Source: a virus
Taxonomy: Duplodnaviria; Heunggongvirae; Uroviricota; Caudoviricetes
Strand: one strand, 5' to 3'
IMG/VR virus record: IMGVR_UViG_2711768074_000007
Span: 1 to 4,270 of that record
Length of the DNA: 4,270 nt
Part shown: positions 1 through 4,270 of the stretch, piece after piece
Layout: each line of letters begins with the position of its first letter
How positions within the stretch are numbered: the stretch's first letter is position 1
Made by a program: the position numbers and the translations under genes
Notes under the pieces: model-generated
The model's database searches: none
The model's input: the letters and a program-made list of their open reading frames with translations, nothing else
What the model was told of the DNA's origin: nothing

Positions 1-132
1 GTTGGTACGGGATGCTATCACGGCGATGCCCTGACGGTTTATCCCTACACCCCGGAGTCCATTATTGTCGAAGGGGATTATTTCCCTGCCCCAGCCATTC
101 ATTTAATTGATAATCTGAGAGTAAACGCATGA
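1..132 (+). CDS. 3' end of upstream late gene (partial; probably a baseplate protein by P2-like gene order). Frame 1 is open from the window edge to TGA at 130..132
   Basis: Frame 1 has no stop from position 1 until TGA at 130-132, which overlaps the tail fibre ATG (ATGA overlap at 129-132), typical of coupled phage late genes. No start codon in window. Product is inferred only from position upstream of the fibre gene. Confidence 0.4.
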   Translation, partial: VGTGCYHGDALTVYPYTPESIIVEGDYFPAPAIHLIDNLRVNA

Positions 133-1694
133 CAGTGAAATACTACGCCATTCTGACTAATCAGGGCGCGGCACGACTGGCTAACGCGACGATGCTCGGC
201 AGTAAGCTGAATCTGACGCAAATGGCCGTTGGTGATGCAAATGGTGTGTTACCAACACCAGACCCTGCACAAACAAAACTGATTAACCAGAAACGCATTG
301 CACCGCTGAATCTTCTGAGTGTTGACCCTAACAATCAGAGCCAGATTATTGCGGAGCAAATCATCCCTGAAAACGAGGGAGGATTCTGGATCCGTGAGAT
401 TGGTCTTTATGATGATGAAGGTGTACTCATTGCGGTGGCAAACTGCCCGGAAACGTACAAACCGCAGTTGCAGGAAGGCAGTGGACGCACCCAGACTATC
501 CGCATGATTCTGGTTGTCACGAACACCGAAGCCATCACGCTGAAAATCGACCCGTCTGTGGTTCTGGCAACCCGCAAATATGTGGATGATAAAATATCAG
601 AGCACGAACAGTCACGACGTCACCCGGACGCCTCGCTGACCGTAAAAGGTTTTACTCAGTTAAGCAGTGCAATTAACAGTGAATCAGAAACACTGGCCGC
701 AACACCGAAAGCGGTTAAGGCTGCATATGACCTGGCTAACGAGAAATATACCGCCCAGAACGCCACCACTACACAAAAAGGGATTGTTCAGCTCAGTAGC
801 GCCACGAACAGCACGTCTGAAACACTGGCAGCGACACCAAAAGCTGTTAAGGCGGTAATGGATGAAACGAACAAGAAAGCACCATTAAACAGCCCGGCAC
901 TGACCGGAACGCCAACAACACCAACAGCGCCACAGGGGACTAATAGTACCCAGATCGCAAGCACGGCTTTCGTTATGGCCGCGATTGCCGCACTTGTAGA
1001 TTCGTCACCTGATGCACTGAACACGCTGAACGAACTGGCTGCGGCGCTGGGCAATGACCCGAATTTTGCGACCACCATGACTAACGCGCTTGCGGGTAAG
1101 CAACCGAAGGATGCCACCCTGACGGCGCTGGCGGAGCTTGCTACATCAGCAGATAAACTCCCATATTTTACAGGGGCAGATCGTGCCGCGTTAACCGCGT
1201 TGACAAGTGTTGGACGTGCCATTCTTGGTAAAACCAGCACTCAGGGAGTTCTTGATTACCTTGGTTTGGGAGAAGGCTCTGCATTACCGGTTGGGGTGCC
1301 TGTTCCGTGGCCTTCAGCCACTCCGCCAACGGGCTGGCTGAAATGTAACGGTGCAGCATTTTCTTCTGAAATGTATCCCAGACTGGCAAGGGCTTATCCC
1401 ACCAATAAATTACCGGATTTACGCGGTGAATTTATCCGTGGCTGGGATGATGGGCGCGGGATTGATGCGGGACGTACCCTGCTTTCAGGGCAGGATGGTA
1501 CAAGTTTTTCTCATTACGGAGGTAATTTCGACATTGGGTCTGGTCATTCAATCAATAACTATGACCAAATTGTTTCTAACCAACCAGGCTTTTCCCGTTT
1601 TTCATTTGCAGGGCCTTCACGAGGCGGTGGGGTTAATTATGTAACCATTCGTCCTCGTAATATTGCGTTTAATTACATCGTAAGGGCAGCATGA
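129..1694 (+). CDS. Tail fibre protein, P2 gpH-like. Constant shaft is codons 1-378 (129..1262); the C-terminal ~143 codons (1263..1691) are variable tip cassette V1, currently expressed
   Basis: 521-aa ORF. N-terminal region (MTVKYYAILTNQGAARLANAT...MAVGDANG...GFWIREIGLYDDEGVLIAVAN) and repeated QLSSA(I/T)NS(E/T)SETLAATPKAVKA motifs match what I recall of P2 H / Mu S type tail fibres. C-terminus contains the LPDLRGEFIRGWDDGRG motif shared by all cassettes in the window. Confidence 0.92.
   Translation: MTVKYYAILTNQGAARLANATMLGSKLNLTQMAVGDANGVLPTPDPAQTKLINQKRIAPLNLLSVDPNNQSQIIAEQIIPENEGGFWIREIGLYDDEGVLIAVANCPETYKPQLQEGSGRTQTIRMILVVTNTEAITLKIDPSVVLATRKYVDDKISEHEQSRRHPDASLTVKGFTQLSSAINSESETLAATPKAVKAAYDLANEKYTAQNATTTQKGIVQLSSATNSTSETLAATPKAVKAVMDETNKKAPLNSPALTGTPTTPTAPQGTNSTQIASTAFVMAAIAALVDSSPDALNTLNELAAALGNDPNFATTMTNALAGKQPKDATLTALAELATSADKLPYFTGADRAALTALTSVGRAILGKTSTQGVLDYLGLGEGSALPVGVPVPWPSATPPTGWLKCNGAAFSSEMYPRLARAYPTNKLPDLRGEFIRGWDDGRGIDAGRTLLSGQDGTSFSHYGGNFDIGSGHSINNYDQIVSNQPGFSRFSFAGPSRGGGVNYVTIRPRNIAFNYIVRAA
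1249..1274 (+). other. Crossover site 1 (Gin/Hin/Cin-type 26-bp site, direct orientation, core TT at 1261-1262) at the constant/variable junction of the tail fibre gene
   Basis: ttcttgattacc-tt-ggtttgggagaa: 12-bp half-sites around a 2-bp core. Inner half ggtttgggagaa is identical to the inner half of site 5 in inverted orientation. Identity with the other repeat copies begins exactly at the core. Falls in the Y-L-G-L-G-E codons. Confidence 0.65.
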
Positions 1695-1722
1695 AAACGT
1701 TGGTTTGGGGGAAGGCTCTGCG
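1261..1722. repeat. Left copy of a ~462-bp inverted repeat (core of site 1 through V1 and site 2)
   Basis: By eye, identical to the reverse complement of 3719..4180; the embedded ORFs 1351..1644(+) and 3796..4089(-) translate to the same 97 aa, and V1 equals V5 at protein level. Confidence 0.8.
1688..1713 (+). other. Crossover site 2 (direct orientation, core TT at 1700-1701); overlaps the V1 stop codon and the start of cassette V2
   Basis: agcatgaaaacg-tt-ggtttgggggaa. Left half carries the TGA stop of the tail fibre gene (gca gca tga); right half encodes G-L-G-E of cassette V2. Confidence 0.65.
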
Positions 1723-2163
1723 TTGCCCGTTGGTGTGCCCGTTCCATGGCCCTCAGCCACGCCGCCAACGGGGTGGCTGAAATGTAACGGCGCAGCATTT
1801 TCTTCTGAAATGTACCCCAATCTGGCAAAGGCCTACCCCACCAATAAATTACCGGATTTACGCGGTGAATTTATCCGTGGCTGGGATGATGGGCGCGGGG
1901 TGGATGCCGGAAGGGGCATCTTAAGCATGCAGGGGTGGTTAACAGGAAGTCATTATCATAATATTCGGTCATGGGATGCGTGGGATAACACGGTGCTGGT
2001 GCCAAATGACAAAGGAGGGGATAGTCTGTTGTCGACAGATAACGCCGTCCGGCAAGGTGCAATTAACGGTAGATTTACCAGTCAATACAGAACTGAATCC
2101 TCAGAGGGGAATGAAACCCGCCCACGCAATATTGCCTTCAATTATATTGTGAGAACCGCATAA
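1705..2163 (+). CDS. Silent alternative tail-fibre tip cassette V2 (no ATG and no ribosome-binding site of its own; would be expressed only after DNA rearrangement fuses it to the constant part)
   Basis: Open frame begins just after an in-frame TAA at 1681-1683; the ORF track starts it at TTG 1705. N-terminal 65 aa are nearly identical to V1 (GEGSALPVGVPVPWPSATPPTGWLKCNGAAFSSEMYP...DLRGEFIRGWDDGRG); C-terminus is ETRPRNIAFNYIVRTA; the middle is divergent. Confidence 0.8.
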   Translation: MGEGSALPVGVPVPWPSATPPTGWLKCNGAAFSSEMYPNLAKAYPTNKLPDLRGEFIRGWDDGRGVDAGRGILSMQGWLTGSHYHNIRSWDAWDNTVLVPNDKGGDSLLSTDNAVRQGAINGRFTSQYRTESSEGNETRPRNIAFNYIVRTA

Positions 2164-2774
2164 TGAATAACGCGATATTAAATGATGACCTTATTGCCGT
2201 ACAGGCAGGAAACATCGTCGTTTATAACTATGATGGTGAGACACGGGAATATATTTCCGAATCAACTGAATATCTTGCTGTGGGTGTCGGTATTCCGGTA
2301 AATTCCTGTTTAGATGCCCCGGGCGCACATAAAGCGGGCTATGCTATCCGCCGTTCGGAGAATTTAAGTTCATGGGAGTATGCGCCAGACCATCGTGGTG
2401 AAACCGTCTATAGCACTGACACGGGAAACACCGAAGAAATCACGGCGCTGGGTGACTACCCGAAAAATACAACCACTATCGCCCCGTTAACACCATACGA
2501 TAAATGGGATGGTGAAAAATGGGTGACAGATACTGAGGCACAACATCGTGCCGCAGTAGAAGCGGCAGAAACCAAGCGTCAGTCACTGGCTGATGCGGCA
2601 ATGGCTTCCATAAGTCTGATTCAGTTGAAGTTGCAGGCCGGGCGGAAGTTGACGCAGGCAGAAACCACCCGGCTTAATGCCGTGCTGGATTATATAGACG
2701 CGCTGAACGCAATGGATATAAACATGGCACCAGATATCAACTTGCCGGAAATACCACTGGCAGCAGCCAGTTGA
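2163..2774 (+). CDS. Tail fibre assembly chaperone (Tfa / P2 gpG / Mu U-like), cognate to cassette V2
   Basis: 203-aa ORF whose ATG overlaps the V2 stop (TAATG at 2161-2165). Position immediately downstream of a fibre tip, and its size, fit tail-fibre assembly proteins; family assignment is from memory, not a search. Confidence 0.7.
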   Translation: MNNAILNDDLIAVQAGNIVVYNYDGETREYISESTEYLAVGVGIPVNSCLDAPGAHKAGYAIRRSENLSSWEYAPDHRGETVYSTDTGNTEEITALGDYPKNTTTIAPLTPYDKWDGEKWVTDTEAQHRAAVEAAETKRQSLADAAMASISLIQLKLQAGRKLTQAETTRLNAVLDYIDALNAMDINMAPDINLPEIPLAAAS

Positions 2775-2780
2775 ATATAA

Positions 2781-3257
2781 CTAAGCCGCCCTTACGATAT
2801 AGTTAAATGCAATATTGCGGGGGCGGGTTTCACTACCACCTGTGTTACCAATACTTCCTCGTGAATGAAGCGTTGGTGATGGAATCAAACTCCCTCCTGT
2901 ATTTGTGGCATCAAGCCCCCTGCCTTGCGTATATGTTTTTTTGAAAATCGTGGCCAACTCCCATTCATCCTTTGTGTCATATCCATCGTTAGCTACAACA
3001 ATATGGCGGTGTTTTTCCAACATCCCGTTTTGAATGCTCAATAAAGCGCGTGCCGCATCAATTCCTCGCCCATCATCCCAGCCACGGATAAATTCACCGC
3101 GTAAATCCGGTAATTTATTGGTGGGGTAGGCCTTTGCCAGATTGGGGTACATTTCAGAAGAAAATGCTGCACCGTTACATTTCAGCCACCCCGTTGGCGG
3201 CGTGGCTGAGGGCCATGGAACGGGCACACCAACGGGCAGCGCAGAGCCTTCCCCCAA
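2781..3257 (-). CDS. Silent alternative tail-fibre tip cassette V3 (inverted orientation)
   Basis: Minus-strand ORF with the same conserved N-module (GEGSALPVGVPVPWPSATPPTGWLKCNGAAFSSEMYPNLAKAYPTNKLPDLRGEFIRGWDDGRG) and C-terminus (ETRPRNIAFNYIVRAA), with a unique middle. Begins at crossover site 3; no ATG. Confidence 0.8.
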   Translation of the reverse strand: MGEGSALPVGVPVPWPSATPPTGWLKCNGAAFSSEMYPNLAKAYPTNKLPDLRGEFIRGWDDGRGIDAARALLSIQNGMLEKHRHIVVANDGYDTKDEWELATIFKKTYTQGRGLDATNTGGSLIPSPTLHSRGSIGNTGGSETRPRNIAFNYIVRAA

Positions 3258-3273
3258 ACCAACGTTTTCATGC
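3248..3273 (-). other. Crossover site 3 (inverted orientation, core AA on the plus strand at 3260-3261)
   Basis: ttcccccaaacc-aa-cgttttcatgct; its reverse complement is identical to site 2. Overlaps the start of V3 and the stop of V4. Confidence 0.65.
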
Positions 3274-3735
3274 TGCCCTTACGATGTAATTAAACGCAAT
3301 GTTATGGGGGCGTGTTTCAGATGCTGTGCGAACTGAGCGAGAGGCGTCGAATGCCCATACAGAAGCACCATATCCTTCAATGATCTCAGTTGGTTGTAAG
3401 CCTACTGATAATATAGAGTCAGTTTGACTAAATGGTCCTGAATTAAGCGCATCTTCAAAAAGCTGAGTACGCCCAAAAGTGCCAACTATATTCTGAATAG
3501 CGTCAGACTGTGCAGACAGTAGGTTGCGCCCATTATCAACGCCCCGTCCGTCATCCCAGCCGCGAATAAATTCGCCCCGTAAATCCGGTAATTTATTGGT
3601 GGGGTAGGCCTTTGCCAGATTGGGGTACATTTCAGAAGAAAATGCTGCGCCGTTACATTTCAGCCACCCCGTTGGCAGCGTGGCTGAGGGCCATGGAACG
3701 GGCACACCAACGGGCAGCGCAGAGCCTTCCCCCAA
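3268..3735 (-). CDS. Silent alternative tail-fibre tip cassette V4 (inverted orientation)
   Basis: Minus-strand ORF with conserved N-module (one substitution, SATLPTGW) and conserved C-terminus (ETRPHNIAFNYIVRAA), with a unique middle that looks AT-richer by eye. Begins at crossover site 4. Confidence 0.8.
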   Translation of the reverse strand: MGEGSALPVGVPVPWPSATLPTGWLKCNGAAFSSEMYPNLAKAYPTNKLPDLRGEFIRGWDDGRGVDNGRNLLSAQSDAIQNIVGTFGRTQLFEDALNSGPFSQTDSILSVGLQPTEIIEGYGASVWAFDASRSVRTASETRPHNIAFNYIVRAA

Positions 3736-3752
3736 ACCAACGTTTTCATGCT
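3727..3752 (-). other. Crossover site 4 (inverted orientation, core AA at 3739-3740)
   Basis: ttcccccaaacc-aa-cgttttcatgct, identical to site 3. Overlaps the start of V4 and the stop of V5. Confidence 0.65.
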
Positions 3753-4174
3753 GCCCTTACGATGTAATTAAACGCAATATTACGAGGACGAATGGTTACA
3801 TAATTAACCCCACCGCCTCGTGAAGGCCCTGCAAATGAAAAACGGGAAAAGCCTGGTTGGTTAGAAACAATTTGGTCATAGTTATTGATTGAATGACCAG
3901 ACCCAATGTCGAAATTACCTCCGTAATGAGAAAAACTTGTACCATCCTGCCCTGAAAGCAGGGTACGTCCCGCATCAATCCCGCGCCCATCATCCCAGCC
4001 ACGGATAAATTCACCGCGTAAATCCGGTAATTTATTGGTGGGATAAGCCCTTGCCAGTCTGGGATACATTTCAGAAGAAAATGCTGCACCGTTACATTTC
4101 AGCCAGCCCGTTGGCGGAGTGGCTGAAGGCCACGGAACAGGCACCCCAACCGGTAATGCAGAGCCTTCTCCCAA
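3746..4174 (-). CDS. Silent tip cassette V5 (inverted orientation); protein identical to the currently expressed V1
   Basis: Translation from the TTG at 4174..4172 gives GEGSALPVGVPVPWPSATPPTGW...GGGVNYVTIRPRNIAFNYIVRAA, identical to residues 382-521 of the 129..1694 product. The ORF track extends the frame upstream to an ATG at 4231, which I treat as a fortuitous extension through site 5. Confidence 0.8.
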   Translation of the reverse strand: MGEGSALPVGVPVPWPSATPPTGWLKCNGAAFSSEMYPRLARAYPTNKLPDLRGEFIRGWDDGRGIDAGRTLLSGQDGTSFSHYGGNFDIGSGHSINNYDQIVSNQPGFSRFSFAGPSRGGGVNYVTIRPRNIAFNYIVRAA

Positions 4175-4191
4175 ACCAACGTTTTCGTCTT
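4166..4191 (-). other. Crossover site 5 (inverted orientation, core AA at 4178-4179); outermost site next to the invertase gene
   Basis: ttctcccaaacc-aa-cgttttcgtctt. Inner half ttctcccaaacc is the exact reverse complement of the inner half of site 1; the outer half differs from sites 3 and 4. Confidence 0.65.
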
Positions 4192-4230
4192 TATCCCTAC
4201 CTATACCAACTATGTATTTTTCACGAAACA

Positions 4231-4237
4231 AAGAGGA
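4231..4237 (+). promoter_or_regulatory. Shine-Dalgarno sequence (aagagga) for the invertase gene
   Basis: Purine-rich aagagga lies 8-9 nt upstream of the ATG at 4246. Confidence 0.5.
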
Positions 4238-4245
4238 TGTTTTTT

Positions 4246-4270
4246 ATGCAAATTGGCTATATTCGTGTGT
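4246..4270 (+). CDS. 5' end (8 codons) of a probable serine DNA invertase (Gin/Cin/Pin/Hin family); partial, runs off the window
   Basis: MQIGYIRV matches the characteristic N-terminus of serine invertases (M-x-IGY-x-RVS, with the catalytic Ser expected one or two codons past the window end). Good ribosome-binding site. Sits immediately beside an array of Gin-type crossover sites in tail fibre genes. Confidence 0.6.

Follow-up and report, generated by a model that had tools for sequence, protein, structure and literature searches.

DNA-inversion switches that swap receptor-binding tips on a single tail-fibre gene are well known. Those of Mu (Gin/G), P1 (Cin/C) and e14 (Pin/P) belong to one recombinase family with a common site consensus, and in each of them the crossover lies within the fibre gene, joining a constant N-terminal part to alternative C-termini. 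Such a switch has two sites and offers two alternatives, with a tfa-type gene for either orientation. The Min system of p15B (E. coli 15T-) has six sites, and Sandmeier et al. are said to have given 240 isomers for it in 1990; the P1/p15B-like phage-plasmids examined here have 7-10. In the EPEC strain E2348/69, a three-repeat locus of a P2-like prophage, described as a 'shufflon', was shown by PCR to exist in four coexisting variants (Goldberg et al. 2014, PMC4272514). The shufflon of R64 likewise gives one gene, pilV, alternative C-termini by means of overlapping invertible segments; it relies on asymmetric sfx sites and on Rci, a tyrosine recombinase (PMC11852207).

The DNA analysed here (the window) is one contig, 4,270 bp in full, from the draft assembly GCA_001284325.1. 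It very probably represents the tail-fibre end of a P2-like prophage of E. coli with a Min-type (Din-family) multiple DNA-inversion system (Table 1). A multi-site inversion system of this kind is already known, and the cassette layout described by the first-pass annotation is real but ordinary within it. The E2348/69 locus represents the same prophage family and is 97% identical to the window over 82% of its length. The two loci share the 5' end of the invertase gene and cassettes a, b and c, but E2348/69 has three sites and three cassettes, against five sites in the window, which additionally carries cassette d and repeats cassette a. The P1/p15B-like plasmids share with the window the cassette types a, b, c and d (86-92% DNA identity over 51-59% of the window), near-identical 26-bp sites and one double-headed b-tfa-x' segment accompanied by single cassettes. 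The host elements differ: the window belongs to a P2-like prophage with a gpH-type constant region, whereas the p15B-type systems act on the S-type fibre gene of P1. Unlike the Gin, Cin and Pin switches, the window has five sites, short cassettes lacking a tfa gene of their own, and a single tfa.

Table 1. Coordinates of the features in the 4,270-nt window
Feature	Position	Strand	Description
Constant part (codons 1-378) of the P2 gpH-like tail-fibre gene	129-1262	+	Expressed ORF 129-1694, 521 aa
Site A, constant region/cassette	1249-1274	+	TTCTTGATTACC-TT-GGTTTGGGAGAA; central TT 1261-1262 inside Leu codon CTT
V1 (type a)	1263-1694	+	Now fused to the constant part; Pfam Collar E 4e-14
V1 N-module	1263-1460	+	
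V1 core	1461-1649	+	
V1 C-peptide and stop	1650-1694	+	
Site B	1688-1713	+	AGCATGAAAACG-TT-GGTTTGGGGGAA; holds V1 stop TGA at 1692-1694
V2 (type b)	1702-2163	+	Silent; HxH motif (SHYHN) in core; stop overlaps the tfa start codon
tfa, single tail-fibre assembly (chaperone) gene	2163-2774	+	Pfam Caudo_TAP E 2e-31; inside the double-headed b-tfa-c' segment
V3 (type c)	2781-3260	-	Silent; convergent with tfa; HxH motif (KHRHI) in core
Site C	3249-3274	-	Sequence as site B; holds V4 stop codon
V4 (type d)	3268-3738	-	Silent; Pfam Collar match
Site D	3727-3752	-	Sequence as site B; holds V5 stop codon
V5 (type a)	3746-4177	-	Silent; exact inverted copy of V1 (0 mismatches in 432 nt)
Site E, cassette/invertase flank	4166-4191	-	AAGACGAAAACG-TT-GGTTTGGGAGAA
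Serine DNA invertase, first 8 codons (MQIGYIRV)	4246-4270	+	Cut off at the contig end; 25 nt in the window

The constant part of the fibre gene contains the Pfam domain Phage_tail_fib (residues 1-150) and two Phage_fiber_2 repeats, and in related prophages the gene follows the baseplate genes V, W, J and I. The tfa product is annotated as 'tail fiber assembly protein' in relatives; NCBIfam gave no specific name for either the fibre or the tfa proteins. The end of the window is identical to the 5' region of the invertase gene in three finished relatives (EC9682, D72 and E2348/69). The adjacent gene of the relatives encodes a small serine recombinase of the Gin/Hin family, 199 aa long, which is a full-length homologue of Mu Gin (PDB 4M6F, E 3e-91, residues 1-185) and is 97% identical to the invertase of a P1/p15B-like plasmid; the window itself holds codons 1-8 only. 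A crude scan of locus L001, in a region outside the window, identified no Fis-dependent recombinational enhancer, an element that usually sits in the 5' part of the invertase gene: three matches to the Fis consensus compared with 6.3 expected, and past its start codon the invertase gene had none. Scans of the window for sigma-70 promoters and terminators stayed at chance level.

Each of the five cassettes is preceded by one crossover site. All five sites are 26-bp imperfect dyads of the form TTC---AAAC- -A -GTTT---GAA with a 2-bp AA/TT core, as in the Din and Min systems, and their two orientations (two on the plus strand, three on the minus strand) define overlapping invertible segments of the Min type, for which at least three sites in both orientations are expected. 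The reverse complement of site A differs from the published p15B site mixQ''R' at one of 26 positions and that of site E from mixMI''L' at two of 26; the internal sites B, C and D are close to mixN''O' and mixMr''N'. The homology flanking the sites is as extensive as had been claimed, with repeat families of 220-256 nt that cover about 45 nt upstream and 200 nt downstream of the crossover. The placement of stop codons inside the next site was likewise borne out: V1, V4 and V5 each close with GCA GCA TGA, and these ends run into sites B, C and D respectively, where TGA occupies positions 5-7. The stops of V2 (TAA, overlapping the ATG of tfa) and V3 (TAG) fall in no site. With cassettes packed head to tail, the final codons of one cassette, its stop included, come to lie in the outer half of the internal site that follows. 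The first-pass annotation took this arrangement to be unusual, which it is not, since it is shared by the P1/p15B-like plasmids: in their clusters of 7 and 10 sites, the stop of each internal cassette falls within the following site, and in the published p15B mix sites ...CGTTTTTATGCC reads on the reverse complement as GGC ATA A / GCA TAA.

All five slots have the proposed conserved, variable and conserved parts: an N-module of 66 aa, which begins GLGEGSALPVGVPVPWPSAT(P/L)PTGWLKCNGAAFSSEMYP and continues to ...LPDLRGEFIRGWDDGRG; a core of 63-79 aa; and a C-peptide, ...RPRNIAFNYIVRAA, with the common end (ET)RP(R/H)NIAFNYIVR(A/T)A. Five slots are indeed present, but V1 and V5 are 100% identical over 432 nt, so that there are only four distinct types of cassette. 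Between distinct cassettes the N-modules are 86-98% identical in nucleotide sequence, and the cores cannot be aligned with one another. The impression that the cores are richer in AT was correct: their GC content is 45.5% against 56.7% in the N-modules (Fisher p = 5e-6 pooled, 0.003 with a single N-module), GC3 is 0.357 against 0.508 (p = 4e-4), and the cores are the AT-richer part in 14 of 14 cassette types. The suggestion that the cores are horizontally exchanged inserts is plausible as far as exchange between elements is concerned, for the 'a' core occurs on chromosomes and on P1-like plasmids (524 of 5,426 finished E. coli genomes). The b cassette together with tfa gives an 85% DNA match to stf-tfa of HK97. 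The N-module allele of 'a' in the window had no exact match among species-representative genomes.

The resemblance to the tail-collar family of T4 gp12, proposed in the first reading, is supported by the matches of every cassette to the Pfam Collar family PF07484 (E about 1e-14; 52.7-55.0 bits against a gathering cut-off of 24, 5/5 cassettes). In the PDB, the cassettes match T4 gp37 (E 6e-14) and gp12, and the alignment of V1 to the gp37 tip places the C-peptide on the last 13 residues of gp37. A profile made from 36 cassettes matches gp37 (E 2.5e-21) and gp12, each in two parts. The N-module aligns to residues 810-893 of gp37 and 340-406 of gp12, and the C-peptide aligns up to residue 1025 of 1026 in gp37 (NIAFNYIVRL) and to residues 506-524 of 527 in gp12 (ETRPWNISLNYIIK). 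The gp37 collar consists of residues 811-860 plus 1016-1026 (PMC12724248), and in fibre tips of this type the chain doubles back to the collar (PMC12609058). The two-part alignments, with the C-peptide at the chain ends, correspond at the sequence level to the split collar of T4 gp37 (PDB 2XGF) and gp12 (1OCY/1H6W), in which an N-terminal part and an extreme C-terminal ...NI-FNYI-R/K peptide flank an inserted receptor-binding part. Judged from these alignments, the N-module and C-peptide are the two halves of one split collar domain, and the variable core, as the inserted receptor-binding part, would leave the collar and return to it. HxH metal-binding motifs like those of the T4 tips occur in cassettes b and c (PMC3004832). 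Unlike the T4 tips, the cassettes have at most one such motif each (none in a or d) and a much shorter insert, 63-79 aa against about 155 aa in gp37, and the T4 tip genes do not invert. An AlphaFold2 monomer of V1 built on a 36-sequence alignment (mean pLDDT 52.5, pTM 0.31) was too poor to judge the packing of the N-module against the C-peptide and was discarded. PDB entry 9CUY (the short fibre of phage phiTE) matches the whole cassette in sequence, but only residues 3-92 are modelled, and it was not used as structural evidence; the 'collar domain' of the Ur-lambda paper is a different structure.

The serine invertase encoded directly downstream would recombine pairs of oppositely oriented 26-bp sites at the central TT. 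Inversion would attach one of the four C-terminal cassettes (a, b, c or d, about 145-160 aa each) to the constant stretch of 378 codons in the gpH-like fibre gene; each cassette would be a complete receptor-binding tip built like those of T4 gp37 and gp12. Enumeration of pairwise inversions gives 48 isomers reachable from the five-site layout. The same arithmetic gives 240 for the six-site layout of the p15B type and exactly 4 for the three-site layout of E2348/69, the number of variants that PCR had shown there. When two E2348/69 assemblies are compared, the 1,998 nt between sites A and E are exactly inverted in one relative to the other, without a mismatch (0) and in identical flanks, and the crossover is narrowed to a 37-nt interval that holds the central TT. 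The same cassettes are found in other orders and orientations in other finished genomes. Inversion at such sites does occur in relatives. The sites, domain homology, substitution pattern, isomers across finished genomes and invertase homology were established directly in this analysis, and inversion in vivo at the E2348/69 locus by others. The locus in this particular strain probably still switches, and the variable core presumably determines receptor specificity or host range. Variation by replacement of whole blocks between Din-type dyad sites adjoining a serine invertase rules out a diversity-generating retroelement as well as a shufflon of the R64 type.

The cassettes might instead be decaying paralogues, pseudogene remnants of tail-fibre genes in a defective prophage without programmed switching. 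The silent cassettes have no start codons or ribosome-binding sites, RefSeq labels some cassettes of relatives as partial or pseudo, and in some relatives either cassettes or tfa are truncated (EC10; L004). Decay is nevertheless highly improbable, as all five cassettes of the window are open and in frame from crossover to stop and bear the mark of purifying selection, the crossover sites are intact, and inversion is documented at a locus 97% identical to this one. The conserved N-module and C-peptide could owe their similarity chiefly to DNA-level roles, acting as homology arms or accessory recombination sequences, or to gene conversion, rather than to protein function. The N-modules of V2, V3 and V4 are 95-98% identical, and 'a' in the window differs from 'a' of other genomes at 12 nt, all in the N-module (0-1 in the core), which suggests that N-modules are exchanged or converted independently of the cores. 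However, codon differences in the N-module are 4-22 synonymous against 0-3 non-synonymous, and those in the 14 codons of the C-peptide 3-9 against 0-2; C-peptide DNA is just 71-78% identical in most pairs, while the peptide is nearly invariant. Because the changes in both blocks are mostly synonymous, it is the protein that is conserved and not DNA homology. Both peptide blocks are also conserved in T4 gp37 and gp12, which do not invert, and a minimal Din-family site has only 26 bp (PMC3241671). The recombinase would constrain only about 12 nt on either side of the crossover, and the cassette-side half-site is the beginning of the N-module coding sequence (G-L-G-E). A mainly DNA-level cause is therefore improbable. 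The conserved blocks are explained mainly by the protein fold, and the C-peptide is conserved as the second half of the split collar domain and not because of the site.

Whether the five-slot layout is genuine is a closer question, since the window is one whole short draft contig and the duplication of V1 as V5 may be an artefact of assembly. The sequenced culture might have mixed inversion isomers of a true locus a, b, c, d, in which case the assembler would have traversed a single 'a' twice; we rate this at slightly less than an even chance. The identity of V1 and V5 starts exactly at the crossover TT (1261) and extends to 1722, V5 lying within a 648-nt inverted repeat (I1). Where finished genomes have a four-cassette locus made up of these a, b, c and d types, 'a' occurs once (EC9682, EC10), every adjacency in the window is found among the isomers of a four-cassette locus, and more than one copy of 'a' is very rare (566 places in 539 records). 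On the other side, real duplicates do occur, as in the finished plasmid p266917_2_02, whose two copies of 'a' differ at 7 positions; finished five-slot loci exist (ECA64); and an inverted duplicate of this kind could arise by homologous exchange when sister chromosomes are in different isomer states. As the contig comes from a short-read draft assembly, the cassette order and copy number seen here may not be real.

The tfa gene flips together with the b-tfa-c' segment and is for this reason antisense to the fibre gene in half of the enumerated isomers, which a simple 'one operon' model does not explain. An isomer with antisense tfa, in which 'a' is expressed, was observed in E2348/69. Reading of the inverted tfa from the convergent tail operon is disfavoured by a hairpin between the invertase gene and gpU in L001, which is bidirectional and terminator-like with a 12-bp stem.

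The discovery value of the locus is limited, because multi-site tail-fibre inversion has been known since 1990 from p15B Min and the switch of this prophage family was verified experimentally in 2014 (E2348/69). For annotation, it matters that silent cassettes are routinely entered as 'phage tail protein' genes in their own right, starting at TTG, or are flagged as pseudogenes, and for assembly, that cassette order and copy number taken from short-read contigs across such loci are not trustworthy. The split-collar reading yields a rule for engineering: receptor-binding cores would be swapped by retaining the N-module and C-peptide and exchanging the insert. Two further readings, rated as rather unlikely, concern the biology of the family. 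From the flipping of tfa it would follow that the short split-collar cassettes, or a and d at the least, fold without a chaperone, or else that tfa expression does not depend on the late fibre operon and a single Tfa recognises the collar common to all cassettes. The exact inverted duplicate a/a', provided that it is genuine, would capture an instance of cassette gain via homologous exchange between chromosomes of different isomer states.

The window spans the whole of contig CYGG01000171.1 (4,270 bp) in GCA_001284325.1, a draft E. coli assembly. In finished E. coli genomes its sequence is located in P2-like prophages, downstream of the baseplate genes V, W, J and I; next comes a gene for a 'recombinase family protein' of 199 aa. 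Of 5,426 finished E. coli genomes, 3,411 contain matches to parts of the window, as do about 300 plasmids, most of them non-mobilizable (92-128 kb among those listed). The five cassettes have the conserved/variable/conserved layout noticed in the first-pass annotation, each block being in frame: an N-module of 66 aa (GLGEGSALPVGVPVPWPSAT... to ...LPDLRGEFIRGWDDGRG; 86-98% nucleotide identity among distinct cassettes), a core of 63-79 aa that cannot be aligned between types, and the C-peptide (ET)RP(R/H)NIAFNYIVR(A/T)A. As had also been observed there, V1, V4 and V5 end in GCA GCA TGA within the outer half of site B, C or D, respectively, and the internal sites have ~45 nt of homology upstream and ~200 nt downstream, forming repeat families of 220-256 nt. 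V2 ends at the start codon of the tail-fibre assembly gene tfa, and V3 ends opposite its stop.

The silent cassettes are called as separate TTG-start genes, the proteins of which begin with MGEGSALP... (MFREKYIVGIGRDKDENVGLGEGS... in V5) and are labelled in RefSeq 'phage tail protein' or flagged as partial pseudogenes. Such calls on promoterless, start-less cassettes look like annotation artefacts. Each N-module also contains a perfect 8-bp inverted repeat with a loop of ~12 nt, encoding SATPPTGWLK; it recurs because the N-module itself is repeated, and one per 4 kb is about the chance expectation.

Features of the window and of related loci (L001, EC9682; L004, another finished relative; L005, EC10; L007, ECA64; L008, E2348/69 assembly expressing 'a')
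Feature	Position	Strand	Remarks
Baseplate gene, end portion	window start		before tail-fibre gene
Tail-fibre gene, 521 codons	129-1694	+	P2 gpH-type N-terminal domain, fibre repeats
Site A	1249-1274	+	TTCTTGATTACC-TT-GGTTTGGGAGAA
V1 (type a)	1263-1694	+	in-frame cassette
Site B	1688-1713	+	AGCATGAAAACG-TT-GGTTTGGGGGAA
V2 (type b)	1702-2163	+	in-frame cassette
HxH motif of V2	about 1945-1960		SHYHN
tfa	2163-2774	+	after V2
V3 (type c)	2781-3260	-	in-frame cassette
HxH motif of V3	about 3005-3020	-	KHRHI
Site C	3249-3274	-	sequence as site B
V4 (type d)	3268-3738	-	in-frame cassette
Site D	3727-3752	-	sequence as site B
V5 (type a)	3746-4177	-	in-frame cassette
Site E	4166-4191	-	AAGACGAAAACG-TT-GGTTTGGGAGAA
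Recombinase gene, first eight codons	4246-4270		window end, after three minus-strand cassettes
N-module 8-bp inverted repeats	1313-1341, 1753-1781, 3181-3209, 3659-3687, 4099-4127		TCAGCCAC ... GTGGCTGA
Silent cassettes called as genes	1705-2163, 2781-3257, 3268-3735, 3746-4231		TTG starts
Inverted repeat, 648 nt	1258-1905 and 3535-4182		98% complementarity
N-modules compared	1263-1460; L001 4263-4460; L007 4294-4491		type a
Hairpin	L001 7396-7425		AAAACCGCTAATGGTCAGATTAGCGGTTTT
tfa of E2348/69	L008 5219-5830		antisense to fibre gene
Truncated cassettes or partial tfa	L005 3360-3667, 4084-4245; L004 2038-2363, 6856-6917		within invertible region

The count of five cassettes holds for the slots. 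V1 and V5 are identical at 432 of 432 positions, the identity extending from the crossover dinucleotide (1261) to 1722, which was overlooked in the first reading; there are therefore four distinct types (a, b, c and d). As a contig of a draft assembly spans repeats of 220-650 nt here, the order and copy number of the cassettes in the window are uncertain. There is slightly less than an even chance that the second 'a' is an assembly artefact, created by a path through mixed isomers. Each adjacency in the window is found among the isomers of finished four-cassette loci, where 'a' occurs once, and of the 539 records carrying the a-core, nearly all have just one copy. Real duplicates do occur, however: in a finished plasmid, 'a' is present twice, with 7 differences between the copies.

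Each cassette is preceded by a 26-bp crossover site. When turned to the orientation of the published table of p15B mix sites, site A (TTCTCCCAAACC-AA-GGTAATCAAGAA) has one mismatch to mixQ''R', site E (TTCTCCCAAACC-AA-CGTTTTCGTCTT) has two mismatches to mixMI''L', and sites B, C and D (TTCCCCCAAACC-AA-CGTTTTCATGCT) are close to mixN''O' and mixMr''N'. The recombinase gene of the finished relatives, the 5' sequence of which is shared with the window end, encodes a full-length match to Mu Gin (E 3e-91) with 97% identity to the invertase of a P1/p15B-like plasmid. In such plasmids, which share the cassette types of the window and have 7-10 sites, the TAA or TGA stop of every internal cassette is at the same spot in the next site (GGCATAAAAACG-TT-...). 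Min-type clusters thus normally have stop codons packed into sites, an arrangement thought at first to be unusual. Unlike the R64-type shufflon with its tyrosine recombinase, the window system is a Din-family, Min-type multiple inversion system, hosted by a P2-like prophage. Both the Min-type system and the switch of this prophage family have already been described.

Inversion can be seen in two assemblies of strain E2348/69, which read const-b-tfa-c'-a'-invertase and const-a-c-tfa'-b'-invertase (const, the constant part of the fibre gene). From the centre of one outer site to that of the other, the two assemblies are exact reverse complements over 1,998 nt; their flanks are identical, and the crossover can be placed, from sequence differences, within a 37-nt interval with the central TT. 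This locus has been reported to contain three partly homologous inverted repeats and to coexist in four PCR-confirmed variants (Goldberg et al. 2014, PMC4272514). In a simple model where every cassette retains its head half-site and recombination takes place only between sites of opposite orientation, the E2348/69 layout has 4 isomers and a six-site layout has 240. The isomer number of p15B is reportedly also 240. For the window the model gives 48 isomers, with 24 distinct sequences because 'a' is duplicated. Other finished layouts are a-d-b-tfa-c' (EC9682), c-tfa'-b'-d'-a' (EC10) and a-e-b-tfa-c'-d' (ECA64). Some finished relatives contain truncated cassettes or a partial tfa, so that such loci decay in some lineages.

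There is a single tfa gene for four cassette types. It lies inside the double-headed b-tfa-c' segment and flips with it; half of the isomers in the model, among them that of the finished E2348/69 assembly expressing 'a', have tfa antisense to the fibre gene. In the EC9682 locus, the convergent genes for the invertase and gpU are separated by a hairpin (perfect 12-bp stem, A4 and T4 flanks) that looks like a strong bidirectional terminator. Inverted tfa is therefore unlikely to be read from the convergent tail operon.

The resemblance to the tail-collar fold of the T4 gp12 family, originally suggested by a motif, is confirmed by homology searches. Pfam Collar (PF07484) matches all five cassettes at 53-55 bits (cut-off 24). 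Among PDB sequences, V1 matches the T4 gp37 long-fibre tip (2XGF, E 6e-14) and also gp12; a profile of 36 cassettes finds gp37 at E 2.5e-21 and gp12 at 1e-5. The alignments are in two parts: 1) the N-module corresponds to gp37 810-893 (811-922 in the single-sequence search) and gp12 340-406; 2) the C-peptide corresponds to the end of the gp37 chain, up to residue 1025-1026 of 1026 (NIAFNYIVRL), and to gp12 506-524 of 527 (ETRPWNISLNYIIK). As residues 811-860 and 1016-1026 form the gp37 collar domain and 907-996 the receptor-binding domain (PMC12724248), the cassette layout is the normal topology of the collar fold. The N-module and C-peptide are thus predicted to be two parts of one split domain, a structural reason for the conserved C-peptide that the first-pass annotation had missed. 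Their predicted packing is based on sequence homology to solved structures, because the AlphaFold2 monomer model of a cassette has a mean pLDDT of only 52.5. Cassettes b and c each have a single HxH motif, ~20 residues past the N-module, which resembles the metal-binding His pairs of gp12 and gp37 (PMC3004832); it is absent from cassettes a and d.

Codon differences between cassettes are mostly synonymous in the N-module (4-22 synonymous, 0-3 non-synonymous) and in the 14-codon C-peptide (3-9 and 0-2). The C-peptide is nearly invariant at a DNA identity of just 71-78% in most pairs, and invariant residues of 36 homologues are concentrated in these two blocks; it follows that selection acts on the protein. 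The recombinase would constrain just 12 nt on either side of the crossover, since minimal sites of the Din family are 26 bp (PMC3241671).

The cores looked AT-richer in the first reading, and they are: GC is 56.7% in N-modules, 45.5% in cores, 45% in C-peptides and 51.3% in the constant part of the gene (N-module vs core, p = 5e-6 pooled; p = 0.003 with a single N-module, so that the repeat enters only once). At third codon positions, cores (0.357) are below both N-modules (0.508, p = 4e-4) and the constant region (0.50, p = 3e-4). The Gly/Pro/Ala/Trp-rich N-module composition accounts for part of the overall contrast, but not for the third-position difference. N-modules exceed cores in GC and GC3 alike in 14 of 14 cassette types from the window and seven related loci, a few of these types being close relatives and the independent cases somewhat fewer. 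Relative to 'a' of EC9682 and of ECA64, the window 'a' has 12 nucleotide differences in the N-module and 0-1 in the core and C-peptide; for example, it has YPRLARAYP where the other window cassettes have YPNLAKAYP. N-modules and cores seem to have had separate histories. Within the split collar domain, the variable core would be the insert that carries specificity.
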